A stretch of DNA of 64,000 nt from Actinomycetota bacterium (GTDB taxonomy: Bacteria; Actinomycetota; Acidimicrobiia; Actinomarinales; Actinomarinaceae): contig JAAZZH010000001.1 in the NCBI GenBank assembly GCA_014239265.1, forward strand, positions 107,419 to 171,418. The letters run 5' to 3'. This document shows positions 1,853 to 56,898 of the stretch, piece by piece. Within the stretch, counting starts at the first letter, position 1, and every line of letters begins with the position of its first letter. A program made the position numbers and the translations under genes. The notes beneath the pieces are model-generated. The model was not told the DNA's origin and ran no database searches. It saw only the letters and a program-made list of their open reading frames with translations.

Positions 1853-2491
1853 ATGGTAGGAATTTATTGGGACTGTGATGGAACACTCATGGACACTGAA
1901 CGTGCATACGCATATGCATGGCAAGAAGTATTAAGAAAACGCAATTTAAGTCTACCAATTGAAACATTTGATGACTATGTAGGTATTGATGATAAATTAG
2001 TTCACAAAAAATATGCTGATGAAGTGAACCTTCCATCATTTAGTGAAACCATGGATGAAATCGCAGCTTTAATCATTAATAATTTTTCTGACCACACTAT
2101 TTATCAAGATGCATTAAGTTGTTTAAATTATTTTCATGATCTTGAATGGAGCCAGGCATGTGTTTCCGCATCACCACAAAAAGCTTTAGAGGATAAACTA
2201 AATAAAGCAAAAATTTCTAAATACTTCTCTTTTGTTATTGGTGGTGATGTCGTACGTCCTAGAAATAAACCATTTCCTGATATTTATAATTTAGCTGTTG
2301 AAAAACTAAACACTACTAAAAATATAATTGTTGAAGATAGCCCTCCAGGTATTCAATCTGGTAAAGCGTCGAATAATTTTGTTGTTGCGATTGACAGGGG
2401 TATATTTAGCAAAAGAGAACTCTCAAATGCTGATATCGTAGTTAAGGAACTTTCTCCAAATCTTTTTATTGATATTAGTAAAACCCTTTAA
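1853..2491 (+). CDS. HAD-superfamily hydrolase (phosphatase/beta-phosphoglucomutase-like)
   Basis: HAD motif I is present as DCDGTLMDTE, and motif IV is present as EDSPPGIQSGKAS. Confidence 0.7.
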   Translation: MVGIYWDCDGTLMDTERAYAYAWQEVLRKRNLSLPIETFDDYVGIDDKLVHKKYADEVNLPSFSETMDEIAALIINNFSDHTIYQDALSCLNYFHDLEWSQACVSASPQKALEDKLNKAKISKYFSFVIGGDVVRPRNKPFPDIYNLAVEKLNTTKNIIVEDSPPGIQSGKASNNFVVAIDRGIFSKRELSNADIVVKELSPNLFIDISKTL

Positions 2492-2525
2492 TTATTGCTT
2501 TATATCTAAATAAACTACAAAACCG

Positions 2526-2550
2526 ACTTAGGCGCAATTTGCGACTAAGT
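2526..2550. terminator. Weak hairpin (ACTTAG / 13-nt loop / CTAAGT) between the convergent HAD and Ddn genes
   Basis: A 6-7 bp stem is visible in the sequence and it overlaps the Ddn stop codon. There is no strong T-run. Confidence 0.2.
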
Positions 2551-2967
2551 TATTGTTAGTACCATCACTGGTATTAGTCTTGAAGTCCTTTGTTGGTATC
2601 TTTCATATCCACCATTATTTAGATAATCCATTTTTCCCCACCATTCAGATCTTTCTTCATTAAAAACTTCTCTCGCATTAACTTCAAACTTCTGAGTTCC
2701 GATAGATATTACTGACGATTCATTTTTTTTTAAATTGTAATACCATCCTGGATTTCGTTCACTTCCACCTCTTGATGCAATTAAACATATTTCATTTCCT
2801 TCTTTTAAGTAAACCAGTACATTCTTTCTAATCAATTGTGTTTTGGCTCCAATTGTTTCTAGAATTAAACACGGTCTTCCATTAAGATTCTTTCCTATCC
2901 GCCCCTTTGTGTAGATGTAAATATAATTATGAAAAAATAAAAATGCAAAGATAAGTTTTCTTTTCAT
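2545..2967 (-). CDS. Ddn/nitroreductase-family deazaflavin (F420H2)-dependent oxidoreductase-like protein with an N-terminal hydrophobic helix
   Basis: GRPCLILETIG...LIASRGGSERNPGWYYNL...RLIPVMVL matches the Ddn/DUF385 pattern. The start is probably M10 at 2967 (ATGA overlap with the upstream photolyase stop); the alternative ATG is at 2994. Confidence 0.7.
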   Translation of the reverse strand: MKRKLIFAFLFFHNYIYIYTKGRIGKNLNGRPCLILETIGAKTQLIRKNVLVYLKEGNEICLIASRGGSERNPGWYYNLKKNESSVISIGTQKFEVNAREVFNEERSEWWGKMDYLNNGGYERYQQRTSRLIPVMVLTIT

Positions 2968-4157
2968 ACAGTCAATGTAATTTTCTTTTTCCATGATGTA
3001 TAACTCCGTGGATAAAAACTTATTGGATCAGCAAGTCTTACTGTCGGATACTCAGCTACAGGTTTATTAATCATGGTTATTTCTTTGTATTTAGGTACAC
3101 ATGCAAATGTTACTGCATAGTTGTAATCATTAAGTATCAATTTAGGGTCTCCTATAAATACTAATACTTTTCTTTTAAGAGCCAATTCTTTAAGTGTTTC
3201 TAATAAGAAAATAATTCTTTTTGTAGATATTTGTATTTTATTAAGTAGTACATTATCGAATATAAAAATGACTGGAAGTTCTGGATGAGCTTTTAGTGCA
3301 GGATCGTCATCACCCATAGATTCACCAGTTAACCATACAACTGATGGTTTTTCATGCGAATTTATTGTTTCTGTTGGGCCGAATTTACTTTTAATGTCAT
3401 AATCTATTTCTTGATCTATTGGTTCATATTTCGATTCATCAGGCCATGTCTGTATAGGACATTTATACTGCAGATTGCATTGTTGACATAGTTTAGGTGC
3501 TCTATTCTTAACTTGAGATTGTGCGAAGCCATACAATTTTCCAGTTTGTCCACCCATAACCCATTGCCAACCTAATCTGTTTGCAAATCTTGAACCATCA
3601 ACTAAATGCTTAAACATAAAATCTTCATATTTATTCCAATTTTCTTCAGCCCTAAAACTGTGGTGAGATGAAAACCACATTCTGGTCTGATTAACCATGT
3701 ATCCTGTTTCAACTAATTCATTTTTAATAGTTTGAATACAGTTCATTTCAGATGTGTTTACTGGTTTGTTGGTGTTTTCTACTGAATAGTTCCACATTTT
3801 TTTATTATTTTGGCCCATAATTGCATAAAGATGTCTTGAAAATTCTTGCCAGAGCAACTCATCTCTAAATTTAGTTCGATCTTCAAATTGAAAACTATCC
3901 ACCGCTTTCCAAACTTCACAAAGATTGAGTAAACCATGACGTATATATGGAGAGAGGAAAGAAGAACCCCTTGTAGTTGCAGGGTAAACATTATTTCTTC
4001 TTTTAGAGTATCCCTTGATGTCAATATTTGCTAGTCGTTCGTCTGCCTGTGACTGACCACCTTTAAATACTGATTCTGTATATTCGTCACAAGTAAGGTT
4101 GTTAAAATATTTATCGATGATTAATTTATTGGAGTCGTGAATGTTAATTTCAGACAT
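2964..4157 (-). CDS. Photolyase/cryptochrome-family protein with permuted domain order (FAD-binding domain N-terminal, alpha/beta antenna domain C-terminal)
   Basis: FAD-domain motifs LLWQEF, TGYMVNQTRMWFSSHH and GSRFANRLGWQWVMG occur in the first two thirds. The photolyase N-domain-like motifs VVWLTGESMGDDDPALK, VIFIFDNVLL and RIIFLLETLKELAL...VFIGDP occur in the last ~110 aa. A Cys cluster CQQCNLQYKC lies between them. Confidence 0.7.
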   Translation of the reverse strand: MSEINIHDSNKLIIDKYFNNLTCDEYTESVFKGGQSQADERLANIDIKGYSKRRNNVYPATTRGSSFLSPYIRHGLLNLCEVWKAVDSFQFEDRTKFRDELLWQEFSRHLYAIMGQNNKKMWNYSVENTNKPVNTSEMNCIQTIKNELVETGYMVNQTRMWFSSHHSFRAEENWNKYEDFMFKHLVDGSRFANRLGWQWVMGGQTGKLYGFAQSQVKNRAPKLCQQCNLQYKCPIQTWPDESKYEPIDQEIDYDIKSKFGPTETINSHEKPSVVWLTGESMGDDDPALKAHPELPVIFIFDNVLLNKIQISTKRIIFLLETLKELALKRKVLVFIGDPKLILNDYNYAVTFACVPKYKEITMINKPVAEYPTVRLADPISFYPRSYTSWKKKITLTV

Positions 4158-4166
4158 TAATAAAAG

Positions 4167-4382
4167 TTAATATCCACCTTGTCCAATTTTCACATTGGAA
4201 ATAGTTAAAACTCCCTCAATGTCAGTTACCTCAAAATTAATTCTTTGACCCTGCCTTAGCGTCCTGAAAATTGAACCTTTGAGCGAACCTGGTTGTAGAT
4301 AAACTTCCGATTTGTCTGTATCTAAAACTACGATTCCATTACCTGAATTAGGATCATATGATTTAACAACACCTTGAGCCAT
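4167..4382 (-). CDS. Cold-shock-domain-like small protein (divergent CSD)
   Basis: GVVKSYDPNSGNGIVVLD...VYLQP...LRQGQRINFEV follows the CspA pattern but lacks the FGFI and VFVHF aromatic motifs. Confidence 0.5.
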   Translation of the reverse strand: MAQGVVKSYDPNSGNGIVVLDTDKSEVYLQPGSLKGSIFRTLRQGQRINFEVTDIEGVLTISNVKIGQGGY

Positions 4383-4571
4383 TTAAACTTTTGTTACTTT
4401 TCCAGCTTTCAAGCAAGATGTACAAACCTTAACTTTTTTCGTATTCGTGCTATCAGCCACTTTTACTTTTTGGATATTTGCAGACCATTTTTTGCTAGAC
4501 CTTTTGTGAGAAAAAGATACTTGTTTTCCGAACCAAGGTCCTTTTCCACATATTTCACATTTCTTTGCCAT
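4383..4571 (-). CDS. rpmB: 50S ribosomal protein L28
   Basis: MAKKCEICGKGP...SHKRS...VCTSCLKAGKV is the typical L28 sequence. Confidence 0.9.
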   Translation of the reverse strand: MAKKCEICGKGPWFGKQVSFSHKRSSKKWSANIQKVKVADSTNTKKVKVCTSCLKAGKVTKV

Positions 4572-4659
4572 TATTCCCTCTGAATTTACATTATAACTAT
4601 AACTAATCTATTGATTATTAGGTACTTTGAATTAAAAAGTTTTTAGCTATTGTTTTACT

Positions 4660-6756
4660 GTGGTTAAAAGAGATATTAATTATTTATCTAATATAGATAT
4701 ATCCGAAATCAAAGGTTTCGGAGAGAAACGAATAAAATCCTTAAATAAATCAGGTATAAAAAGCATTGTAGATCTTATCAGATTCTATCCCAGGAAACAC
4801 ATAGATCGTTCTGATATATTAACAATCGAGGATGTCAGAAGCTTATTTGAATTTAAAGAAATAACAGTTTTAGTAAAGATTGTAAAAGTTTCTGTTTTCA
4901 CAACCAGAAGTAGATTACGGATAGCAACTCTTTTAGTTTCAGATGAGACAGGAGATGCTAAAGCTAAATGGTTTGGTCCTCAATACATTGAAACTCGATT
5001 TAAAGAAGGTGATACAGTTGCTATTTCTGGTGTGCCCGATGTCAAGAAAACAGGATCTGTCGAATTTAAAAATGCAACTATAGAGAAATATTTGGAATTT
5101 GATGAATTAAACGAAACAGGTGCTCTAATACCTATTTATAAAAAAATAGAAGGACTTTCAAGTACTCTTATTAGAAAAGGTATAAAGCATGCCTTAAAAC
5201 GTACTCCTGAAATCGAAGATTATATTAATGATGAACAATTAACTGATTATGAACTATTAGATAGAACCACAAGTTTAAATGATATCCATTTTCCAGAGGG
5301 GTTATCAAATTATTACAAAGCTAAAAAAAGACTCGCTTTTGATGAGTTTATTTATTTGCAAACTATTTTTAAAAGAAAGAAAAAATCAAATAAACTCATT
5401 ACTGGAAGCGAAAAAATTCAATCAAATAATGAGTTAATGGAGGCTTTCACAGAAAATCTTGATTTTGAATTAACTAGTGCTCAAAAAAGGACAATTAATG
5501 AAATATTGATAGATATGAATAAAAATTCTCCAATGAAAAGGCTTCTTCAGGGGGATGTTGGTTCAGGAAAAACTATTGTTGCTGCATGTGCTGTTTATTC
5601 AGCTAGTAATGCAGGTTTCAAGTCAGCTTTAATGGCACCTACAGAAGTTCTTGCTGAGCAGCACTATAATTCACTAAATCCAATATTAGATAAACATAAT
5701 ATCAAAACATATCTTTTAACTTCTTCAGTTAAGGATAGGTCAGAGATTATAAATCAAATGTCCTCAGCAGAACCAGTATTTTTTATTGGAACTCATGCCT
5801 TGATTCAAGAAAACGTAGTTTTTAATAATTTAGGACTCGCAATAATTGACGAACAACAGAGATTTGGAGTTGATCAAAGAAAGAAGCTTATTGAATCAAG
5901 CAATATTATTCCTCACCAGATTGTAATGACCGCAACCCCTATTCCTAGAACTACTGCACTTGCAGTATATGGAGATTTAGATATTTCTATCATTGATGAG
6001 CTACCTCCGGGTAGGGAAGAGATTGAAAACATACTTCTATCTGGTCTTGAATCAGATAACAATCAAGTTGTAGATTACTGCAAACAACATTTACTAGACA
6101 ATTCGCAAATCTTTGTGGTGTGTCCCTATATAGATGAGAGTGAAAACAAAGATATAAAAGCAGCTGAAAATGTATATGAGCAATATATCAATCTTTTTCC
6201 TGACAGCAATGTAAAAATTTTGCATGGCCGAATGAAATCTGAAGAAAAAGAGTTAATAATGTCACAAATGAATAATGGACAGATTGACATTCTGGTATCT
6301 ACAGTAGTTATTGAAGTAGGGATAGATATCGCTAATGCAACGCTTATGATTATCGAAAGCGCAGAAAGATTTGGATTAAACCAACTCCATCAGCTGAGGG
6401 GAAGAGTTGGGAGAGGAAGTAAAAAGTCACAATGCATCTTTCATATTAGTAATAAGTTAACAATTGATACAATAACAGATGTAGGCAAACAAAGACTCAG
6501 TGCTATAGTCTCAACGAATGATGGTTTTAAACTTTCTGAAATGGACCTACAGATAAGAGGAGAAGGAAAGGTAACTGGCACAGACCAATCTGGATTATCC
6601 GATTTAAAAATTGCTGATCTGAGATATGATTTTGAAATTTTGAATCTTTCTAAACTATTCTTTAATAAGGAAATAACACCAGAGCTCGAGGAGAGGTTAT
6701 ATCTTGAAGCAACACTCCTTTTCCCTAATTTTATGAAAGTTGAGGATACCACTTGA
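4660..6756 (+). CDS. recG: ATP-dependent DNA helicase RecG
   Basis: Walker A is GDVGSGKT and the DEQQRFG motif (DEAH-type DExH box) is present. There is an N-terminal wedge domain. Length is 698 aa. Confidence 0.9.
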   Translation: MVKRDINYLSNIDISEIKGFGEKRIKSLNKSGIKSIVDLIRFYPRKHIDRSDILTIEDVRSLFEFKEITVLVKIVKVSVFTTRSRLRIATLLVSDETGDAKAKWFGPQYIETRFKEGDTVAISGVPDVKKTGSVEFKNATIEKYLEFDELNETGALIPIYKKIEGLSSTLIRKGIKHALKRTPEIEDYINDEQLTDYELLDRTTSLNDIHFPEGLSNYYKAKKRLAFDEFIYLQTIFKRKKKSNKLITGSEKIQSNNELMEAFTENLDFELTSAQKRTINEILIDMNKNSPMKRLLQGDVGSGKTIVAACAVYSASNAGFKSALMAPTEVLAEQHYNSLNPILDKHNIKTYLLTSSVKDRSEIINQMSSAEPVFFIGTHALIQENVVFNNLGLAIIDEQQRFGVDQRKKLIESSNIIPHQIVMTATPIPRTTALAVYGDLDISIIDELPPGREEIENILLSGLESDNNQVVDYCKQHLLDNSQIFVVCPYIDESENKDIKAAENVYEQYINLFPDSNVKILHGRMKSEEKELIMSQMNNGQIDILVSTVVIEVGIDIANATLMIIESAERFGLNQLHQLRGRVGRGSKKSQCIFHISNKLTIDTITDVGKQRLSAIVSTNDGFKLSEMDLQIRGEGKVTGTDQSGLSDLKIADLRYDFEILNLSKLFFNKEITPELEERLYLEATLLFPNFMKVEDTT

Positions 6757-22633: not shown

Positions 22634-23761
22634 GTGAACTCTAGAGTATTGGTAATGATGTTATACGAACAAATAGATACCCTTCTCTTTGGAGAAAAGC
22701 CAACCTCGGAACTGTCTGCCGAGGCTTTTGATGTTAAATTATCAAGTTTCGGAAAAAATATTACATACAGTCCTAAGGTTTTTATACCCCTAACTACTTT
22801 ATGTCAAGATTCATGTGCGTATTGTACATTTGTTAAAACCCCAAAAGATGGAGGTACTTTCCTTAACTATGAAGAAGTAGATGCAATTGCATCTGTTGGT
22901 GTATCTGCAGGGTGTTACGAAGCATTATTTACACTTGGAGATAAACCAGAGGTTAAATGGGATTTTGCACTTGAACAATTAAAAAGTTTTGGTTTTTCTT
23001 CAACTCATGAGTATCTAACTGACAATATGAAAAAAATTCATCAGAAATATAAAATATTTCCTCATGCAAATCCAGGATTAATGACTAAAGATGAAATTAT
23101 TAACTACAAACAATATTCTCCCTCTGGAGGTCTTATGCTAGAGAGTTTTTCTCCTAAATTACTGGAAAAAGGTCGAGCACACTATGGTGCTAAAACAAAA
23201 AATATAAAATATCGAATTGAAACATTAAATAATGCTGAAAAAATTAAATACCCAATGACAACAGGTCTTCTTATTGGGATAACTGAGAGTAAAGATGAAT
23301 TAATAAATGATATTGTAGAACTTATTCAATTATGTAAAAAAAATACTGCAATACAGGAAATAATTTTACAAAACTTTAGAGCTAAAAAAAATACGCTTAT
23401 GAGAAATAATGCCGAAATAATAAATGATCTCTTCTTAAGGATTATCGCAATCACAAGATTATTGTTACCATCCCAGATTTCATTACAGGTCCCACCTAAC
23501 CTATTACCTGATGTTGAAATGTACTTAACTAGTGGTATTAATGACTTAGGAGGAATATCACCTAAGACTATTGATTGGGTTAATCCTGATCACTTGTGGC
23601 CAGATCTAAATAATTTAGAAAAAATAACAAGTTCAAGTGGACAATCTCTTAAAAAAAGACTTCCTGTTTATCCAAGTTTTATAAATAATGAATGGTTAAG
23701 CCCACCAGTTTTTGAAAAAGTCAGTAATGTTATTGATAACAATGGTTATCCGAAACAATGA
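22634..23761 (+). CDS. cofG: FO synthase subunit 1 (7,8-didemethyl-8-hydroxy-5-deazariboflavin synthase) CofG
   Basis: The radical SAM motif sits in the CofG context ITYSPKVFIPLTTLCQDSCAYCTFV. The start is GTG 22634 or ATG 22655. Confidence 0.75.
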   Translation: MNSRVLVMMLYEQIDTLLFGEKPTSELSAEAFDVKLSSFGKNITYSPKVFIPLTTLCQDSCAYCTFVKTPKDGGTFLNYEEVDAIASVGVSAGCYEALFTLGDKPEVKWDFALEQLKSFGFSSTHEYLTDNMKKIHQKYKIFPHANPGLMTKDEIINYKQYSPSGGLMLESFSPKLLEKGRAHYGAKTKNIKYRIETLNNAEKIKYPMTTGLLIGITESKDELINDIVELIQLCKKNTAIQEIILQNFRAKKNTLMRNNAEIINDLFLRIIAITRLLLPSQISLQVPPNLLPDVEMYLTSGINDLGGISPKTIDWVNPDHLWPDLNNLEKITSSSGQSLKKRLPVYPSFINNEWLSPPVFEKVSNVIDNNGYPKQ

Positions 23762-25611
23762 TAGAAAATAAAAATATATCCTATTTAAGAGTCCGTCCTT
23801 GCGATAGTGATAATGAGATATATTTGAATTCAAGAGCTAAAGAAGGTACTTCTGCCTTTACTTTGAAACCAGGACTTGATATCAATTATCAAAATCTATT
23901 AATAAATGGCTTTCAAACTATTTCATCAGATATTGTTTCTAATTCTTCAGCATGGTTCGTTGATGATGAACTGATAAACACAAAGATAGAACAAAATTCA
24001 AAAAGATTAATTTATCGATACAAGGGAATTAAAGAAAATGCTTTAGAAGTGATTTCAAGATACAAACCAGCGATAGTACTTATAGATAACCTCGAAGATA
24101 TGGAATTTTTCATGTCTCTTAATGGAACAACTAATTTTATTATCTCTAAGTATGTTAACTCTATAGATGAGGCTATAGAGGCTGTAAAAAGGGGAGTCGA
24201 TGACTTATTTCTGCGTGATTGGAGCAAAAATCAAATTCTAGAACTTCAAAGTAATTTATCAATTCCTTTGTACGAGAGAACAATACTTTCACCACTGCTA
24301 GAAGTTAATGAAGCCAGGAACTTATTAGAAAAAACTGAATTTACAAATTTCCTTCAAACGAGAAATGTTCGAGGTTACAAAAGAGAAACTACTTCATGGT
24401 ATCCAGGCAGCGGAGAGTCTATACCTAATCTTTTCAATTTCACTTCAGAAACATTATCTGATTATAAAACCTCGAATTTAGATAATATTTTAAAAAATTT
24501 TCAAAAAACAGAACATCTTAATGAAAAAGATCTCCTTGATTTATTTAAAACATCTGGAAAGTACATCAATCAAATTGCTGAACTTGCGAATGAGTTAACA
24601 AAGAATGTTCACGGTAACAAAGTTACATTTGTTAAAAACCGAAACATCAATTACACAAATCAGTGTTATTACAAGTGTGGTTTCTGTGGCTTTTCAAAAG
24701 GTCCCCAAAGTTTAGATCTTAAAGAAAAACCATATACATTAACACCTGATGAAGTCCTTAATAGAACAATAGAAGCACATAAAAATGGCGCCTCAGAAGT
24801 TTGCTTACAAGGGGGGATTCATCCAAGTTATACAGGAGATTTCTATATTGATTTAGTTAAAAAAATAAAGAGTGAATTACCTGACATGCACATACATGGG
24901 TTTACACCACTGGAAATATGGCAAGGTGCAAATACTGTAAATAAGTCAATAGAAAACTATTTACAAGAACTTAAAGAAGCAGGGTTGGGAACTCTACCTG
25001 GCACTGCAGCTGAAATACTGGATGACAGAATAAGGAAGTACTTGTGCGATGATAAAATTACTTCATCTCAATGGGGTTACGTTATGGAAGTTGCTCATTC
25101 ATTAGGTATTAAATCTACTGCAACAATTATGTTCGGCCACATAGATGATCTAGAGTCTTGGGTAAATCACTTTCAATTAATTAAAAATATTCAATTAAAA
25201 ACAAATGGATTTACAGAAATTGTCCCTCTTCCTTTTGTTCACATGGGTTCTCCAATATTTTTACAAGGTAAGAGTATGCCAGGTCCTGCTTGGGATGAAA
25301 TAGTGCTGATGCATTCATTAGCGAGAATATACTTTTACAACACAATAGATAATATTCAAGCAAGCTGGGTAAAACTTGGTCATGATGGTGCAAAAGTGCT
25401 TCTTGAGTCTGGTGTTAATGATCTCGGAGGAACGTTAATCAATGAAAACATCAGTAGGGCATCAGGAGCAAATCACGGTCAGGAGACTACTGACATGGAA
25501 TTTATCAGTCTAATTAATGATGCAGGAAAAATTCCATATTTAAGAAACACGTTATATACATCTTTTAAGAATCTTGAAAGTGTAAGTTTTGAAAATGTTA
25601 TCAAAATATAA
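23758..25611 (+). CDS. cofH: FO synthase subunit 2 CofH with a ~250-aa N-terminal extension of unknown function
   Basis: The CofH radical SAM motif is VTFVKNRNINYTNQCYYKCGFCGFSKG, at residue ~300. There is an ATGA overlap with cofG. The frame is open through the extension. Confidence 0.7.
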   Translation: MIENKNISYLRVRPCDSDNEIYLNSRAKEGTSAFTLKPGLDINYQNLLINGFQTISSDIVSNSSAWFVDDELINTKIEQNSKRLIYRYKGIKENALEVISRYKPAIVLIDNLEDMEFFMSLNGTTNFIISKYVNSIDEAIEAVKRGVDDLFLRDWSKNQILELQSNLSIPLYERTILSPLLEVNEARNLLEKTEFTNFLQTRNVRGYKRETTSWYPGSGESIPNLFNFTSETLSDYKTSNLDNILKNFQKTEHLNEKDLLDLFKTSGKYINQIAELANELTKNVHGNKVTFVKNRNINYTNQCYYKCGFCGFSKGPQSLDLKEKPYTLTPDEVLNRTIEAHKNGASEVCLQGGIHPSYTGDFYIDLVKKIKSELPDMHIHGFTPLEIWQGANTVNKSIENYLQELKEAGLGTLPGTAAEILDDRIRKYLCDDKITSSQWGYVMEVAHSLGIKSTATIMFGHIDDLESWVNHFQLIKNIQLKTNGFTEIVPLPFVHMGSPIFLQGKSMPGPAWDEIVLMHSLARIYFYNTIDNIQASWVKLGHDGAKVLLESGVNDLGGTLINENISRASGANHGQETTDMEFISLINDAGKIPYLRNTLYTSFKNLESVSFENVIKI

Positions 25612-49917: not shown

Positions 49918-50958
49918 ATGGATTTAAGCATAAACGTAGGATATTTCGGACCTCATATTTCAGATGATGATCAACTCATTAAAAAATTAGATGAAATGGG
50001 GTTTGCATGTATATGGACTGCTGAGGCGTATGGTTATGATGCTGTCACTCCGCTAGCTTATTTTTCTGCAATTACTAATAATATAAATATAGGCTCAGGA
50101 ATTATGCAGATACCAGGTAGAACTCCTGCAATGACTGCCATGACTGCAATAACCCTCGATAAGCTTTCATCTGGAAGATTTAGACTTGGACTTGGAGTAT
50201 CTGGTCCACAAGTTGTAGAAGGGTGGCATGGACAACCCTATACAAAACCACTATCTAGAACAAGAGAGTATATACAGATAATTAGAGAAATATTTCAGAG
50301 AGAAAACAAGGTAAGTTTTGATGGTGAATTTTATAACCTTCCGTACAATGGTCCTGATTCCTTAAATCTTGGCAAGCCACTAAAACTCATTGAGCCACCA
50401 TTAAGAAACAATATACCTATTTACTTAGCGGCTATAGGACCAAAAAATATTGAATTATCTGCTGAAGTAGCTGATGGTTGGTTGCCATTCATGTATTCAC
50501 CAACTAAAGGTGATACAGTATTTGAAGAGTATCTTAAAAAAGGATTTAAGAAATCGGGAAATTCCAACAAAGAAAAAGGATTTAACATTGTTGCTACAGT
50601 TTTTGCTAGATTATGTGAAGAACATGAGGTTGAGGAGTATTTAAGACCAGCAAGAACAACCTACACTTTATATGTTGGAGGTATGGGTGCTAAAGATAAA
50701 AATTTCTATTTCAATCTTATGTGCGAGTATGGATATGAAGAAATGGCTACTGAAATCCAAAATTTATATTTATCTGGTAAGAAACAAGAAGCTGAGGAGT
50801 TATTTCCTGAAGACCTACTTAGAGATTTAACCCTTGTTGGTACCAAAAAGGACATTGAAGAAAAATTAAATCATTGGAAAGATTCTAAAGTCACGGAGTT
50901 GTCTCTATCACTTCCAATTGATATTCCAACATTAGAATTTATCAAAGAAATAAATTGA
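49918..50958 (+). CDS. Luciferase-like monooxygenase (LLM) family oxidoreductase, likely F420-dependent class
   Basis: It has a TIM-barrel LLM pattern (FACIWTAEAYGYDAV..., GRFRLGLGVSGPQVVEGWHG). Its length of 346 aa is typical of LLM-class F420 enzymes. Confidence 0.7.
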   Translation: MDLSINVGYFGPHISDDDQLIKKLDEMGFACIWTAEAYGYDAVTPLAYFSAITNNINIGSGIMQIPGRTPAMTAMTAITLDKLSSGRFRLGLGVSGPQVVEGWHGQPYTKPLSRTREYIQIIREIFQRENKVSFDGEFYNLPYNGPDSLNLGKPLKLIEPPLRNNIPIYLAAIGPKNIELSAEVADGWLPFMYSPTKGDTVFEEYLKKGFKKSGNSNKEKGFNIVATVFARLCEEHEVEEYLRPARTTYTLYVGGMGAKDKNFYFNLMCEYGYEEMATEIQNLYLSGKKQEAEELFPEDLLRDLTLVGTKKDIEEKLNHWKDSKVTELSLSLPIDIPTLEFIKEIN

Positions 50959-52298
50959 AAATCCTTCTCCTGTCTTTTTATGACCTTGGAAAACAGCCAA
51001 AGATAATTTCAGAGCTGTATCAAAAACTTAATAATGGTACAAACGAAATTGATATTGTGGATTATTCTGTTGAAGAAAAATCTATAAAGTTAAATGATTA
51101 TGATGCTCTGGGTATTTATGCTTCAATGCATACAGCTTCTGTTCTTGCAGAAGAATACTTACGTCATAAAGAGTTACCAAGTAAGTTATTTGTTTTTGGT
51201 CTCTATGCAAAAGTGTTCACAGAAATATTTCATAACTTTGAAATAATTCAAAATTTAGACAATGAAGATTTGGAATCCTTATTAAATGTTCAACTTAATG
51301 GGGAATACTCTTTCAAGCATTCAGTGCCAGATAGAACAGTTCTCCCTTCGATTACTGATTATTCTCACATTGTTGATGGTTCAAATAATCTAATAGCAGG
51401 CTCAGTAGAGACTACTTATGGATGTAAACATGAATGCACCCACTGCCCAGTACCTATTGAATTTAATGGAACATTCAAAACATTTGGTACAGATAAAATC
51501 TTAAAAGACGTATCTAACCAGGTAGAAGCAGGTGCAAAGCATATTTCTTTTAATGATCCGGATTTCTTTAATGGACCTAAACATGCCTTGAAAATATTAC
51601 AAGCTCTAAATAGTGAACATCCAGAAATAACATATGATTCAACTATTAAAGTAGAGCATATTCTAAAATATCCTGATTATTTTAAAGAACTTAAAAACCT
51701 TAAAATGCTTTTCGTCATTTCTGCATTCGAAACAACTAATGATAAGGTCCTTAATATTTTAAAGAAAAATCATACATCATCTGATTTAAATAATGCTGTT
51801 GAATTGTCTCTTTCAAATAGTATCGACATAAGACCTACTTGGATGCCATTTTCCCCATGGACAAAAAAACAAGATTTACCAAATATTATCAGACTGATTG
51901 AAGAATATAAACTTAGGGAAACAGTAGATCCAATTCAACTTACTATTAAATTACTGGTCCCTAAGAACTCTTTAATACTTAAAAATCCTGAAATTGATAA
52001 CTACTTACAGGAATACGATCCAGCATCCTTTTCATATTCATGGAAGTATAAGTCTCCCGATATGGATAAACTGCAAATTGATTTATTCACTTATGTCCTC
52101 CACAATGAGTCATTGGATGAGTATGCACAATATCTTGGGATAGTAAAAATCATAGAACAACATACCGAACAGAATCTTCTTGAATCTGGAGACTACAATC
52201 AAAGAATAGTTCCTAAACTTTCAGAAACATGGTTCTGCTGTTCTGAACCTAATAAAATTCAATTAGAAAGAATAAAATCAAACAAGGCCTTAATATGA
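50955..52298 (+). CDS. B12-binding-domain radical SAM protein with a C-terminal CCSEP tail (resembles the CUAEP/CCAEP-tail radical SAM family)
   Basis: The N-terminus MKILLLSFYDLGKQP has a B12-binding rSAM fold. The CxxxCxxC motif is YGCKHECTHC. The C-terminus is ...ETWFCCSEPNKIQLERIKSNKALI. Confidence 0.7.
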   Translation: MKILLLSFYDLGKQPKIISELYQKLNNGTNEIDIVDYSVEEKSIKLNDYDALGIYASMHTASVLAEEYLRHKELPSKLFVFGLYAKVFTEIFHNFEIIQNLDNEDLESLLNVQLNGEYSFKHSVPDRTVLPSITDYSHIVDGSNNLIAGSVETTYGCKHECTHCPVPIEFNGTFKTFGTDKILKDVSNQVEAGAKHISFNDPDFFNGPKHALKILQALNSEHPEITYDSTIKVEHILKYPDYFKELKNLKMLFVISAFETTNDKVLNILKKNHTSSDLNNAVELSLSNSIDIRPTWMPFSPWTKKQDLPNIIRLIEEYKLRETVDPIQLTIKLLVPKNSLILKNPEIDNYLQEYDPASFSYSWKYKSPDMDKLQIDLFTYVLHNESLDEYAQYLGIVKIIEQHTEQNLLESGDYNQRIVPKLSETWFCCSEPNKIQLERIKSNKALI

Positions 52299-52801
52299 GC
52301 AAAGTCACTGATGAAGAATTAAATGTCGCTACTTGGAAAATACCGAGTCCTTTAGCAATAATAGGCTCTAGCAGTCAGGGTGAGTATAACGGTATGACTG
52401 CAAGTTGGATTACCCAAATAAATATGGATCCTTTACTTATTGTTGTCGGAATTGATAATAAAAGTTTTACTCATAAACTCATGACAAAAAACGATTTCTT
52501 TTCTATTAATCTTTTTTCTTCAAATTACACAAAAGTTTTTGTTAAATTTTCAAAACCAGCTGTTTATTCTCAAGGTTATTTAAATAAAGAACCAATAACC
52601 TTAACCCAAAACAAGATTCCTATTTTTGATAATGCTATAGTTTGGTTTGAACTTCAAAAGGTGAACGTAGAAGATCTTGGAACTCATTCATTGTACACAG
52701 GAAAAGTCATAGATTGTAAAACAATTGAAACTGAAGAAAGAGTTGCTTATATGGGTGACACTAGGATGAAGTATGGTGGAGTACCAAGAGGTGGTCACTA
52801 G
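52295..52801 (+). CDS. Flavin reductase-family protein (FMN-binding split barrel)
   Basis: It has a typical flavin_reduct N-terminus (PSPLAIIGSSSQGEYNGMTASWITQINMDPLLIVVGI). Confidence 0.7.
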   Translation: MSKVTDEELNVATWKIPSPLAIIGSSSQGEYNGMTASWITQINMDPLLIVVGIDNKSFTHKLMTKNDFFSINLFSSNYTKVFVKFSKPAVYSQGYLNKEPITLTQNKIPIFDNAIVWFELQKVNVEDLGTHSLYTGKVIDCKTIETEERVAYMGDTRMKYGGVPRGGH

Positions 52802-53472: not shown

Positions 53473-54165
53473 ATGAAAAAATTTAGATACCTTTTAATAT
53501 CATATATCTCTATCTTCATATTGTTTCCTTTAATTCGTTTAATTAATAAAAATTTTTATGATAAGAACATTCTTCCACAGGTTATTAATTCATCATGTAA
53601 CTCAAAGCCAATTGATTATCAACGAAAAAAAATTATACCTCAAGCAAAAGGTGTCGTGCTTGAAATTGGCATAGGGCCAGGCTCTAATCTAAAACATTAT
53701 GAACAAAACAAGGTAAAAAAAATTATCGGCGTTGACCCATCTACAGAACTCAATAAGATTGCAATAAAAAGGGCTGAAAAACATAATTTAACTATAGAAT
53801 TTTTGATAGAGTCTGCCGATAATTTATCAGTGCCTGATAATTCCATAGATACCGTTGTTAGTACATACGCATTATGCTCTATTCCCAATCCGTCTATGAC
53901 ATTAAAAGAAATCCATAGGGTATTAAAACCAACAGGAAGATTCATTTTTAGCGAACATGGTTTAGCTCCAGATACTTCAGTTTCTTTTATACAAAATGGT
54001 ATAGACTTTTTTTACCCAAAAATTGCTGGAGGATGTCATGTAAACAGAGACATAGAGAGCTTACTTACACAAAATTCATTTAAAATAGAAAAACTAGAAA
54101 ATATTTATCTTCCTGGAACCCAGAAATTCCTTGGTTACAATTCTTGGGGGAGTGTTTCGATTTAA
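53473..54165 (+). CDS. Class I SAM-dependent methyltransferase with an N-terminal TM helix
   Basis: Motif I is VLEIGIGPGSN. Motif post-II/III is VLKPTGRFIFSEH. Confidence 0.7.
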   Translation: MKKFRYLLISYISIFILFPLIRLINKNFYDKNILPQVINSSCNSKPIDYQRKKIIPQAKGVVLEIGIGPGSNLKHYEQNKVKKIIGVDPSTELNKIAIKRAEKHNLTIEFLIESADNLSVPDNSIDTVVSTYALCSIPNPSMTLKEIHRVLKPTGRFIFSEHGLAPDTSVSFIQNGIDFFYPKIAGGCHVNRDIESLLTQNSFKIEKLENIYLPGTQKFLGYNSWGSVSI

Positions 54166-55055
54166 AATAGAGTCAGAATAGCATTAACACATTCATCAGG
54201 CTTGTCTTCTTGTAAAAAATGCCCAGCATCTTTTATTTCAATGTGCTTTAGATTCTTTGCACCAGGCACATATTTTATAAAAGAGTTTTCAACTCCTTTA
54301 AAAATATGATCTTTATCACTAAATGCACATAAGAATGGTTTATCCCACTGTTTAAGAACTTCCCATGCTTTTACATTATGCTCATAGCTTGGATTATCAA
54401 CAGAATCTGGAACTAGTAATGGAAATTGTCTCGCAGCTTCTTTGTAAGAATCATCTGGAAAAGGAGAATTATAAGCATCTATTGTCTCCTGAGACATTTC
54501 ACTCACACTTCCTCCTTTAACTACACCGCCAATATGAAAATTTTCAACTGTTTGTGAATAATTTTTCCATGATTCAAAAGCTTCACCTAGTGGCGTTTTT
54601 CCTGTTGGTAATCCTGTATTTGACATCACAATATTATCAAATCTATTCAAATTATTTACCACAAGTCTTAAACCGATCAGGCCACCCCAGTCTTGTCCAA
54701 AAATTGTAATATTGTTCAAATCTAGTTTATTTAGCCATGTATCCATCCAACTGACATATTTTTCATACGTGTAACCTTCTCTTTGAGACAGTTTATCTGA
54801 TTTTCCAAAACCAGGTAAATCAGGAACTACTACTCTCAGTCCATTATTTACAAGTGGGTCTATAAAATTTCTATATAAATATCCCCATGTTGGCTCTCCA
54901 TGTAGAAGTAATACAGTATTTTTATTTTTAGATCCTTCATCTACATAGTGAATATTTATATCACCATATTCTGTATTTACTGGGACAAAGTTTGGTTTGT
55001 AGTCCCAATGTTTTAAGTTTTCAAAGTCTTGAGGATCATTTTTTATTATTTCCAT
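54162..55055 (-). CDS. Alpha/beta hydrolase, haloalkane dehalogenase-like
   Basis: It has HGEPTWGYLYRNFIDPL...VVVPDLPGFGKSDK, the nucleophile elbow GQDWGG and a C-terminal His. Confidence 0.65.
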   Translation of the reverse strand: MEIIKNDPQDFENLKHWDYKPNFVPVNTEYGDINIHYVDEGSKNKNTVLLLHGEPTWGYLYRNFIDPLVNNGLRVVVPDLPGFGKSDKLSQREGYTYEKYVSWMDTWLNKLDLNNITIFGQDWGGLIGLRLVVNNLNRFDNIVMSNTGLPTGKTPLGEAFESWKNYSQTVENFHIGGVVKGGSVSEMSQETIDAYNSPFPDDSYKEAARQFPLLVPDSVDNPSYEHNVKAWEVLKQWDKPFLCAFSDKDHIFKGVENSFIKYVPGAKNLKHIEIKDAGHFLQEDKPDECVNAILTLF

Positions 55056-55064
55056 ATTTTTATT

Positions 55065-55580
55065 TTACAGATTATGAATAACATTTGTAACGACACCCCA
55101 AACAAATGCTTCACTTTCACCAGATACAACTATGGGATCATAAGAATCATTTTCTGGTTCAAGGTGAATGGCCTTTCCTTTTTGCCTATATCTTTTGACC
55201 GTAAGCTCGTTGTCTACAACAGCGATAACAACTTTTCCATTTTCTGCTTTGAGGCTTCTATCTACCACTAAGATATCATCTGGAAATATTCCTGCATTAA
55301 TCATGGATTCCCCTGAAGCTCTTACTAAAAATGTAGATGCCGGATGTTTAACCAAATATTGATTCAAATCTATTTTGTCTTCTAAGTAGTCATCTGCAGG
55401 TGAGGGGAAGCCGGCTGCAACCTTGTTACTGTACATTGGGACCTCATGTAAACCTCTGCTCACTACTTCTGAAATATATTTAACTTTGCTAACAGGTATG
55501 CGCACGGCCTTTGTCTTTTCTCCATACCTGCCTTGACCTTTTGGTCTTCCAGCACCTTTTCTTGCTCCACCTCTTGGCAT
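55065..55580 (-). CDS. umuD: UmuD-like S24 autopeptidase (Pol V subunit) with a 45-aa basic N-terminal extension
   Basis: AAGFPSPADDYLEDKIDLNQYLVKHPASTFLVRASGESMINAGI...VIAVVDNELTVKRY aligns with E. coli UmuD, including the A-G cleavage site and the Ser/Lys dyad. The N-terminus is MPRGGARKGAGRPKGQGRYG. Confidence 0.8.
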   Translation of the reverse strand: MPRGGARKGAGRPKGQGRYGEKTKAVRIPVSKVKYISEVVSRGLHEVPMYSNKVAAGFPSPADDYLEDKIDLNQYLVKHPASTFLVRASGESMINAGIFPDDILVVDRSLKAENGKVVIAVVDNELTVKRYRQKGKAIHLEPENDSYDPIVVSGESEAFVWGVVTNVIHNL

Positions 55581-55635: not shown

Positions 55636-56898
55636 ATGAATAATAAAATTTTTGCCTTAGTTGATTGTAATAATTTTTATGCCTCATGTGAGCGTGTTTT
55701 TAATCCGAAGCTAGAAGGTAAACCGATCGTAGTGCTTTCTAATAATGATGGATGTATTATCGCTAGGTCAAATGAGGCAAAAGCTTTGGGTATTCCTATG
55801 GGTGCTCCATTTTTTAAATACAAACAGTTGATTAATAGAAATAATGTTCACGTATTTTCCTCTAACTACACTTTTTATGGAGATATGTCTGCAAGGGTAA
55901 TGACTTCTCTGAAATCTCTTGTCAATGAAATAGAAATCTACTCTATTGATGAAGCATTTTTAGATATAAGTAGTTTTGCTTACTGTGACCTAGAGGAGAC
56001 AGCTAGAGAGATAAAAACTCTCATAAAGCAGTGGACGGGAATACCTGTTTCTATTGGAATAGGTTCTTCCAAAACATTAGCCAAAATTGCAAACAGGCAG
56101 GCAAAAAAAGATGCAGTAGATGTATTTGATATAAGAAATTTAGGCGTGAAAAAAGATATATTGGAACAACTTCCCATAGAAGAAATATGGGGAATCTCAA
56201 CAAGATGGGGTAGAAGATTAAGAAAAATCGGGGTAGAGACTGCGCAGGATTTAGCTGAAGCAAATCCAAGACATGTGAGAAAGACAATAAGCATCGTAGG
56301 GGAGAGGATTCATTATGAATTGAATGGCATATCTTGCATAGGAATAGAAGAAGTTAAAAATAAAAAAAATATTATCTCATCAAAGTCGTTTGGGAAAAAG
56401 GTCTCTCGTGTTCAAGAGCTAGAGGAAGCAGTATCAAACTACACGGCAAGGGCATGTGAAAAATTAAGACAGCAGAATTCAAGGGCGCAAGGATTGTATG
56501 TATTTCTAAGAACAAGTCCACATATAGAAAGGGACAAACAGTACAGCAACGGCATGAGCACTCATTTCTCTATCCCAACAAGCAATACCTCAAAAATAAT
56601 AAAAGAAGCAAAAAGGCTTACAAACAAATTATTTCTTCCAGGATATGAGTACCAGAAAATAGGAGTGATGCTTTTGAATATTTCAGATGCAAAAAATGAA
56701 CAAGGTAGTTTTCTCGATAATGAAAACTATAGCAAATCAGACACAGTCATGAAATCTTTAGACACAGTGAACAAACAGTTCGGATCAGGTGCATTGATGC
56801 TTGGTGCACAGGGGATACAGAAGAATTGGAGAATGAGAGCAGATAGAAAGTCTGGGGCCTACACAACAAATCTTAAAGATTTACCGATTGTTAAGTAA
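55636..56898 (+). CDS. umuC: Y-family DNA polymerase UmuC (Pol V catalytic subunit)
   Basis: The N-terminus FALVDCNNFYASCERVFNP...PIVVLSNNDGCIIARS is the typical UmuC/DinB start. Confidence 0.85.
   Translation: MNNKIFALVDCNNFYASCERVFNPKLEGKPIVVLSNNDGCIIARSNEAKALGIPMGAPFFKYKQLINRNNVHVFSSNYTFYGDMSARVMTSLKSLVNEIEIYSIDEAFLDISSFAYCDLEETAREIKTLIKQWTGIPVSIGIGSSKTLAKIANRQAKKDAVDVFDIRNLGVKKDILEQLPIEEIWGISTRWGRRLRKIGVETAQDLAEANPRHVRKTISIVGERIHYELNGISCIGIEEVKNKKNIISSKSFGKKVSRVQELEEAVSNYTARACEKLRQQNSRAQGLYVFLRTSPHIERDKQYSNGMSTHFSIPTSNTSKIIKEAKRLTNKLFLPGYEYQKIGVMLLNISDAKNEQGSFLDNENYSKSDTVMKSLDTVNKQFGSGALMLGAQGIQKNWRMRADRKSGAYTTNLKDLPIVK

Follow-up and report, generated by a model that had tools for sequence, protein, structure and literature searches.

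A probable iron–sulfur NewPHL/SPL photolyase from a marine actinobacterium, with an antenna-like domain at its C-terminus

Results

A photolyase-type gene with its FAD domain first

A 64-kb stretch (64,000 nucleotides) of the actinobacterial contig JAAZZH010000001.1, hereafter the window, carries a complete gene for a protein of 397 amino acids (aa) that very probably is a photolyase of the NewPHL/SPL class, of the iron–sulfur (Fe–S) subgroup typified by Rhodococcus fascians RfSPL (Table 1). A sequence-only reading of the window had described this open reading frame (ORF) as a photolyase/cryptochrome homologue with permuted domain order, and the ORF list and translation returned both the gene, on the minus strand, and the motifs quoted for it. 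The window (G+C content 33%) is closest to genomes of Candidatus (Ca.) Actinomarinales, matching at 90% a 1.02-Mb contig of a metagenome-assembled genome of that group, and the homologue search found proteins 99–100% identical to the 397-aa product in public Ca. Actinomarina assemblies.

Table 1. Positions of the photolyase gene, its parts and the associated genes in the window.
Feature	Coordinates	Strand	Evidence
Probable SPL/NewPHL-type photolyase gene, complete	2964..4157	minus	ORF list and translation; 397 aa plus stop
Photolyase-type FAD-binding all-helical catalytic domain, N-terminal, aa 1–240	3438..4157	minus	PF03441, PDB-sequence alignment, Foldseek
Cys140, predicted first [4Fe-4S] ligand (RfSPL Cys155)	3738..3740	minus	Invariance; offset of 15 to RfSPL
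C224-x2-C227-x5-C233 (CQQCNLQYKC), predicted three other [4Fe-4S] ligands (RfSPL Cys239/242/248)	3459..3488	minus	Invariance; RfSPL spacing and offset
Interdomain linker, variable, aa 241–270	3348..3437	minus	Least conserved stretch, indels; mostly coil, pLDDT ~85
C-terminal alpha/beta Z-domain, aa 271–397, predicted five alternating beta-strands and helices	2967..3347	minus	AlphaFold2, Foldseek, profiles
VVWLTGESMGDDDPAL, aa 273–288, putative counterpart of the canonical photolyase beta1 motif LVWFRxDLRxxDNxAL	3294..3341	minus	hhalign
F420H2-dependent quinone reductase/deazaflavin-dependent nitroreductase family gene, downstream	2545..2994	minus	TIGR00026 E=6.7e-27; PF04075 E=1.2e-35
Small cold-shock-domain-like gene, 71 aa, upstream	4167..4382	minus	PF00313 (CSD) E=7.7e-6, just below gathering score
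7,8-didemethyl-8-hydroxy-5-deazariboflavin (FO) synthase: CofG (22634–23761) and CofH-containing protein (23758–25611)	22634..25611	plus	TIGR03550 E=5e-108; TIGR03551 E=9e-140

The catalytic domain, which binds flavin adenine dinucleotide (FAD) in photolyases, occupies the N-terminal part of the protein, its helical FAD-binding region spanning aa ~30–240. The sole Pfam match was to PF03441 (FAD_binding_7) at aa 98–202 (E=1.2e-6; profile positions 2–118 of 203), and the NCBIfam photolyase/cryptochrome models aligned aa ~24–203 with model positions ~200–397, all photolyase models scoring far under their cut-offs (best, 45.7 versus 884.6 bits). Comparison with PDB sequences by phmmer returned canonical photolyases and cryptochromes only and aligned aa 47–201 with residues 224–393 of the Synechococcus class I photolyase (1TEZ/1OWL; E=8e-12). 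Only ~30 residues stand ahead of the photolyase match and no alpha/beta domain precedes the catalytic domain; the Pfam scan found no PF00875-like region N-terminal of PF03441, and no match to PF04244 (DPRP) at E≤10. The canonical order, PF00875 followed by the FAD domain, is reversed here, and the claim that the FAD-domain signatures come first was borne out, the NCBIfam and PDB photolyases together placing aa ~30–203 on their residues ~205–395.

The full-length AlphaFold2 model, computed from a 35-sequence alignment, had a mean predicted local distance difference test (pLDDT) of 91.7 and a predicted template-modelling (pTM) score of 0.92, which indicates that the two domains are modelled as a confidently placed unit. 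In the Foldseek search, this model aligned with solved photolyases over ~220–250 columns, corresponding to the catalytic domain alone, and no NewPHL/SPL-type entry was among the PDB matches listed.

The residues that bind FAD and the cyclobutane pyrimidine dimer (CPD) in Escherichia coli Phr have identical counterparts in the window protein (Table 2), and these are invariant, or nearly so (W103, 90% or more), among the 35 homologues, as are, without exception, the electron-transfer tryptophans W197 and W174. The distal tryptophan of the triad (W314, 1QNF numbering) falls opposite a Val in the 1TEZ alignment, which is loose at this point; as is typical of NewPHL/SPL proteins, only the proximal and middle tryptophans are kept.

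Table 2. Residue correspondence of the window protein with E. coli Phr and RfSPL.
Site	Window protein	E. coli Phr	RfSPL
CPD site, RfSPL offset 12	E100, W103	E274, W277	E112, W115
CPD site, RfSPL offset 15	N156, M160, W199	N341, M345, W384	N171, M175, W214
FAD site	R159, D187, A192, N193, G196	R344, D372, A377, N378, G381	R174, D202, A207, N208, G211
Trp chain	W197, W174		W212, W189
Fe–S cysteines	C140, C224, C227, C233		C155, C239, C242, C248

Cysteines of an iron–sulfur site and membership of the NewPHL/SPL class

The reversed order has a precedent. 'Inverted topology' is the term given to it in the published work on the class, which Emmerich et al. 2020 (PMC7736829) described as NewPHL and Xu et al. 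2021 (PMC8476157) as SPL. The latter authors equated the two, calling NewPHL 'actually the same class', and reported four cysteines in about one third of SPLs, from actinobacterial and cyanobacterial subgroups (PMC8476157). The 406-aa RfSPL, of subgroup Ac, binds FAD and an Fe–S cluster and repairs CPDs, not 6-4 photoproducts (PMC8476157); it is the only member in which the cluster has been demonstrated experimentally, by spectroscopy (PMC8476157).

The window protein carries the C...C-x2-C-x5-C pattern of the Fe–S subgroup (Ac / C), and all four cysteines are invariant in the 35-sequence alignment as well as in relatives at 22–35% identity. The sequence-only reading had located a Cys cluster, CQQCNLQYKC, between the two parts of the protein; three of the predicted ligands do lie there, between the catalytic and the alpha/beta domain, and the fourth, C140, had been overlooked. 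By position and spacing, this cluster corresponds to the [4Fe-4S] site already described for the actinobacterial/cyanobacterial SPL subgroup. Each character of the Fe–S subgroup of SPL/NewPHL that can be read from a sequence is found in the window protein. The FAD-first architecture is accordingly not new, the class having been described in 2020–2021, and the window gene is a new marine member.

The C-terminal Z-domain resembles the photolyase antenna domain

In the NewPHL/SPL class, an ordered Z-domain of ~130–150 aa joins the catalytic domain in a single unit, and the pTM of 0.92 predicts the same for the window protein. Modelled alone, aa 271–397 gave a pLDDT of 89.5 and the topology seen in the full-length model. 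When the isolated domain was compared with 350,542 chains using Foldseek, the 16 best matches were Methanosarcina mazei class II photolyase and mouse CRY1 (E=5e-4 to 2e-2, TM-scores 0.50–0.57, 122–139 columns, probability 0.98–1.00), with universal-stress-protein (USP) and phosphopantetheine-adenylyltransferase (PPAT) folds ranking below them.

Profile comparisons led to the same family. A Z-domain profile searched against 177,635 PDB sequences gave 17 matches at E≤10, 16 of which were N-terminal domains of photolyases or cryptochromes aligned in register (chain residues ~26–115), and PF00875 was matched by 14 of 28 family members (best E=0.0034), being the sole Pfam family matched by more than one of them. 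Alignment by hhalign with five canonical N-terminal domains (P=0.006, 56 columns) was likewise in register, pairing VVWLTGESMGDDDPAL with LVWFRQDLRLHDNLAL and PVIFIFDN...KRIIFLLETLKEL with the beta2-alpha2 region; the segment from VVWLTGESMGDDDPAL to KRIIFLLETLKEL covers aa 273–325, and its first motif falls on residues 4–19 of E. coli Phr, whose sequence was checked against 1DNP. Within that motif, V274 and P286 do not vary among the 35 homologues and W275 and A287 hardly do, and the motif is kept in distant relatives; the beta1 motif (VW..x..L..D.PAL), the beta2 FxFD and an invariant Arg-x-x-Phe-Leu helix persist down to 22% identity.

Several points weigh against taking this likeness as common descent. 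The Z-domain sequence of the window protein gave no Pfam match to PF00875 at E≤10, and the phmmer domain score of its C-terminal part was −2.6, below significance. The hhalign probability was low (6%), and its P value comes from a single pairwise comparison with five canonical sequences. We infer that the Foldseek matches fall on the N-terminal domain of their targets, and that the Z-domain packs as its counterpart does in a canonical photolyase. Rossmann-like folds, moreover, recur by convergence. The match between the C-terminus and the photolyase alpha/beta domain asserted by the sequence-only reading held for the family and the structure (PF00875 in 14 of 28 members, profile, hhalign and Foldseek) and fell short for the single sequence. 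We nevertheless accept it: weak as each sequence statistic is, all point to one family and one register, and the fold comparison supports the match independently.

The published descriptions of this region differ. According to Xu et al. (PMC8476157), the C-terminal extension could not be modelled and has no homology to the alpha/beta domain. Emmerich et al. (PMC7736829) assigned the Z-domain 'a yet unknown fold', with predicted secondary structure unlike a typical Rossmann fold; a figure legend in the same paper calls it similar to the antenna domain, and 'an early domain swapping event' is given there as the less favoured scenario. Both papers favour a single-domain ancestor (PMC7736829, PMC8476157).

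On such an account, the class would represent an ancestral single-domain photolyase with an unrelated C-terminal extension, the Z-domain being a recruited Rossmann/HUP-like domain that came to resemble the antenna domain by convergence. The secondary-structure order predicted by Emmerich et al. and a 313-aa member with a mere 53-residue tail (PMC7736829) fit this account, as do the lack of sequence homology reported by Xu et al. (PMC8476157), the weak Pfam and hhalign statistics obtained here and the rank of the USP and PPAT folds just under the photolyases. Yet three independent searches placed photolyase/cryptochrome N-terminal domains first and in the same register, and the beta1, beta2 FxFD and Arg-x-x-Phe-Leu motifs are reproduced down to 22% identity; we consider convergence unlikely, and true homology of the Z-domain to the antenna domain probable. 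The model and the searches thus support the reading of the Z-domain as an antenna-type alpha/beta domain and of the domain order as permuted, which domain scans, family conservation, structure prediction and fold search all uphold. The simplest account is that the class keeps both domains of the photolyase plan in permuted order, rather than adding an unrelated tail to a single-domain enzyme.

How the permutation came about is a separate matter. An origin by tandem duplication and subsequent loss of both ends, as put forward in the sequence-only reading, is plausible and no more: none of 10 unusually long relatives had an alpha/beta-helical-alpha/beta intermediate, PF00875 being found at the N-terminus in 0 of 10. 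A literature search for a published link between photolyases and circular permutation returned nothing relevant.

Predicted function and mechanism

Judged by its conserved sites and its family, the window protein is most likely a CPD photolyase with FAD and a [4Fe-4S] cluster, and it is probably specific for single-stranded DNA (ssDNA). In the proposed mechanism, the protein would bind FAD and the [4Fe-4S] cluster as its characterised homologues do, with the cluster placed as in PhrB. The FAD would be photoreduced to FADH- through the two-Trp chain, W197 then W174; blue or near-UV light would excite FADH-, and an electron would pass to the flipped-in CPD, which then splits. The C-terminal domain may pack on the catalytic domain, seal the FAD pocket and shield the pyrimidine edge of the flavin, the sealing of the pocket being the job of the N-terminal domain in ordinary photolyases. 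The likely substrate would be ssDNA, given, as Emmerich et al. argued (PMC7736829), that the protein lacks the interdomain phosphate-binding loop with which duplex DNA is kinked.

Against this assignment stands, in the first place, that the function of the window protein and its Actinomarinales orthologues is carried over from characterised homologues. In addition, ssDNA specificity has been seen in the Fe–S-free alphaproteobacterial members alone (PMC7736829), and the RfSPL assay used oligo(dT)16 as its only substrate (PMC8476157).

Pointing to the C-terminal extensions and to how weakly active RfSPL is, Xu et al. raised the possibility that such proteins are sensors (PMC8476157). The window protein would then act in light sensing or regulation as a bacterial cryptochrome, with the C-terminal domain as its output module, and the conserved clustering of its gene with genes for a cold-shock-like protein and an F420H2-dependent reductase, rather than with repair genes, would suit such a role. 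The residues for CPD binding and catalysis (Table 2) are, on the contrary, invariant or nearly so, three family members repair CPDs in vitro and some relatives have DNA-repair proteins as gene neighbours or fusion partners, and we regard a sensory role as very unlikely. One such fusion, a 690-aa distant SPL relative (P0217), ends in a uracil-DNA-glycosylase-superfamily domain (PF03167, E=9e-17), and this photolyase–glycosylase fusion supports a role of the family in DNA repair.

Breadth of the family

An indexed search with the 397-aa protein returned 2,112 homologues from independent assemblies, single-cell genomes and isolates; those listed were nearly all full-length (390–425 aa, query coverage 91–100%), with identity down to 42%. 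An exhaustive search gave 1,272 cluster representatives at 50% identity. The order of FAD domain first and antenna-type domain last is shared, over the full length, by more than 2,100 homologues. Scanning one genome per species, we found the gene in at least 594 species, from Actinomarinales, Acidimicrobiia, Nanopelagicales, Mycobacteriaceae, Solirubrobacterales, Nitriliruptoria and others. Conservation extends over both halves, 75 columns being invariant among 35 aligned sequences, and no photolyase paralogue or repeat was found elsewhere in the 64-kb window. That the reversed order might be an artefact, either a misassembled tandem repeat (a caveat of the sequence-only reading) or two adjacent photolyase genes fused and decaying, has a practically negligible probability: nothing in its favour came to light, the window lacks any paralogue or repeat to feed it, the same 397–420-aa architecture recurs in these independently derived proteins and species genomes, and both domains are strongly conserved in a compact, confidently predicted model.

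An FO synthase in the window and the question of an antenna

The sequence-only reading had pointed to an FO synthase 19 kb away, and the CofG and CofH-containing proteins (Table 1) do lie ~18.5 kb from the photolyase gene. The CofH-type protein, of 617 aa, matches CofH only from about aa 231–255, its N-terminal ~230 aa being matched by no NCBIfam model, and the start of its gene overlaps the cofG stop codon by 4 nt. The link between photolyase and FO synthase is circumstantial. Ca. Actinomarinales have been reported to make F420 (PMC7771536), and the proximity says little because F420 production would itself need an FO synthase.

Antennas were not found in NewPHLs or RfSPL, all of which were expressed in E. 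coli, an organism that cannot make FO; SePhrB was antenna-less until co-expressed with FbiC. I41, R51 and L55 have been singled out as determinants of 8-hydroxydeazaflavin (8-HDF) binding in the Synechococcus enzyme, and their equivalents in the phmmer alignment of the window protein are L304, R314 (invariant) and L318; this comparison does not discriminate, E. coli Phr sharing the Arg and the Leu. It is conceivable, though doubtful, that the Z-domain is a functional antenna, that Fe–S SPLs of FO-producing hosts (Actinomycetota and cyanobacteria) bind 8-HDF/FO, and that 'no antenna' reflects expression in E. coli; we are equally tentative about an FO antenna in the window protein itself. If the antenna reading were true, a corollary would be that NewPHL/SPL arose by circular permutation of a two-domain Fe–S photolyase, or the reverse, and a circular-permutation origin would undercut SPLs as the single-domain ancestors of the superfamily.

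Genomic neighbourhood

The neighbourhood was compared across 80 loci, 24 from Actinomarinales and 56 from other orders. The downstream reductase gene begins inside the photolyase gene, the two sharing 31 nt at the 3' end of the latter, and this adjacency and overlap (28–31 nt) is kept in all 24 Actinomarinales loci and in 0 of 56 loci of other orders. The reductase was for this reason rejected as a family-wide partner: the association is restricted to Actinomarinales, where the whole neighbourhood is syntenic, which makes it poor evidence for functional coupling, and the gene arrangement may reflect the rigid synteny of a streamlined lineage alone.

Upstream, the cold-shock-like ORF lies 9 nt from the photolyase start codon, a position conserved in Actinomarinales loci, and is preceded, with a 0-nt gap, by a 62-aa Cys-rich ORF (4383–4571, minus strand), putatively ribosomal protein L28; these genes form a tight same-strand cluster with the photolyase and reductase genes. 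The arrangement suggests that the L28-like, cold-shock-like and photolyase genes are one transcription unit, divergent from recG. Within positions 2300–4800, promoter-like sites were rarer than in shuffled sequence and no terminator was found, a result that agrees with a single transcription unit but otherwise says little.

In other, high-GC Actinomycetota (for example, L069, 4850–5953), the SPL gene adjoins a gene for a DUF2256 zinc-ribbon/DUF3253 protein in 12 of the 56 loci, an FeS-BCP (PF04244) photolyase gene in 5 and a DUF2071 protein gene likewise in 5. The FeS-BCP neighbours agree with the SPL/FeS-BCP operons described by Xu et al. (PMC8476157). In Ca. Actinomarinales, another photolyase is reported to be encoded next to the rhodopsin gene (PMC7771536), as would be expected if, as a rule, SPL/NewPHL proteins occur alongside a canonical photolyase.

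Two further clusters in the window were noted. At 49918–52801 (plus strand), three genes encode an LLM-class F420-dependent oxidoreductase (TIGR03559, E=5e-124), a radical SAM protein of the CUAEP/CCAEP-tail type (NF040546, 379 versus 500 bits, below cut-off) and a small flavin reductase. A haloalkane dehalogenase-family hydrolase gene (54162–55055, minus strand) adjoins a gene for a UmuC-like Y-family translesion polymerase (55636–56898, plus strand; score just below cut-off), with a 171-aa ORF (55065–55580, minus strand) between them.

Discussion

As a gene call alone, the finding matters little; its wider bearing is on evolution. Each of the two founding papers proposed that photolyases and cryptochromes may all descend from this class, taken as a single-domain ancestor (PMC7736829, PMC8476157). 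The new element here is the structural and profile evidence for the Z-domain as a displaced antenna domain, which bears on that proposal, and an antenna-type Z-domain reopens the question of an FO antenna in native hosts. In addition, a 'hypothetical protein' present in 24 of 24 sampled species genomes of Ca. Actinomarinales, one of the most abundant streamlined actinobacterial groups of the surface ocean, may now be annotated as a putative second, Fe–S-type CPD photolyase, probably for ssDNA repair.

Comparison with known photolyases

FeS-BCPs, or prokaryotic (6-4) photolyases (PhrB, 4DJA; CryB), have a four-Cys [4Fe-4S] site at the equivalent place in the catalytic domain, and PhrB structures were among the best TM-scores (0.44) for the full-length model in Foldseek. 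They have, however, the normal domain order, a PF04244 N-terminal domain, a 6,7-dimethyl-8-ribityllumazine (DMRL) or 8-HDF antenna and 6-4 repair activity, whereas the window protein has a CPD-type active site and lacks a PF04244 match, which a genuine FeS-BCP from a related locus gave at E=5e-48.

Canonical class I/III CPD photolyases (E. coli Phr, 1DNP; Synechococcus/Anacystis, 1TEZ/1QNF) share with the window protein a homologous catalytic domain (PDB E=8e-12) with identical active-site residues and an alpha/beta domain of the same fold and motifs, in reversed order. The window protein has neither their long interdomain linker nor their phosphate-binding loop; it lacks the last ~85 PF03441 profile positions, the Fe–S site standing in place of the C-terminal helices, and the distal Trp is missing.

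The alphaproteobacterial subgroup A members DsNewPHL (Dinoroseobacter shibae) and MmNewPHL (Methylobacterium mesophilicum) resemble the window protein in CPD active site and two-Trp chain. FAD binding has been shown for both, and their CPD repair is restricted to ssDNA (PMC7736829), a specificity demonstrated for them and predicted for the window protein. They are without the four cysteines and the Fe–S cluster, whereas the window protein has the four cysteines; the Z-domain 'GFF' motif reported for the NewPHL data set was not identified in it.

RfSPL is the nearest characterised counterpart. Rhodococcus lying outside the 80 loci retrieved, the comparison is based on published residue numbers: 18 of 20 published functional positions of RfSPL are identical in the window protein, at an offset of 15 at 16 of the 20 positions and of 12 at E100 and W103, and the two that differ are predicted DNA-backbone contacts (R228 to Q213 and K233 to N218). 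The C-terminal part is treated in the RfSPL paper (PMC8476157) as an unmodelled 'extension' not homologous to the antenna domain, in contrast to the reading given here. The hosts differ, that of the window being a streamlined marine Ca. Actinomarinales genome of 33% G+C, while both belong to the Actinomycetota, and high-GC actinobacterial relatives are 42–47% identical to the window protein. The two proteins are nevertheless alike in length (406 versus 397 aa), domain order, the four cysteines, the residues of the CPD and FAD sites and the two-Trp chain.

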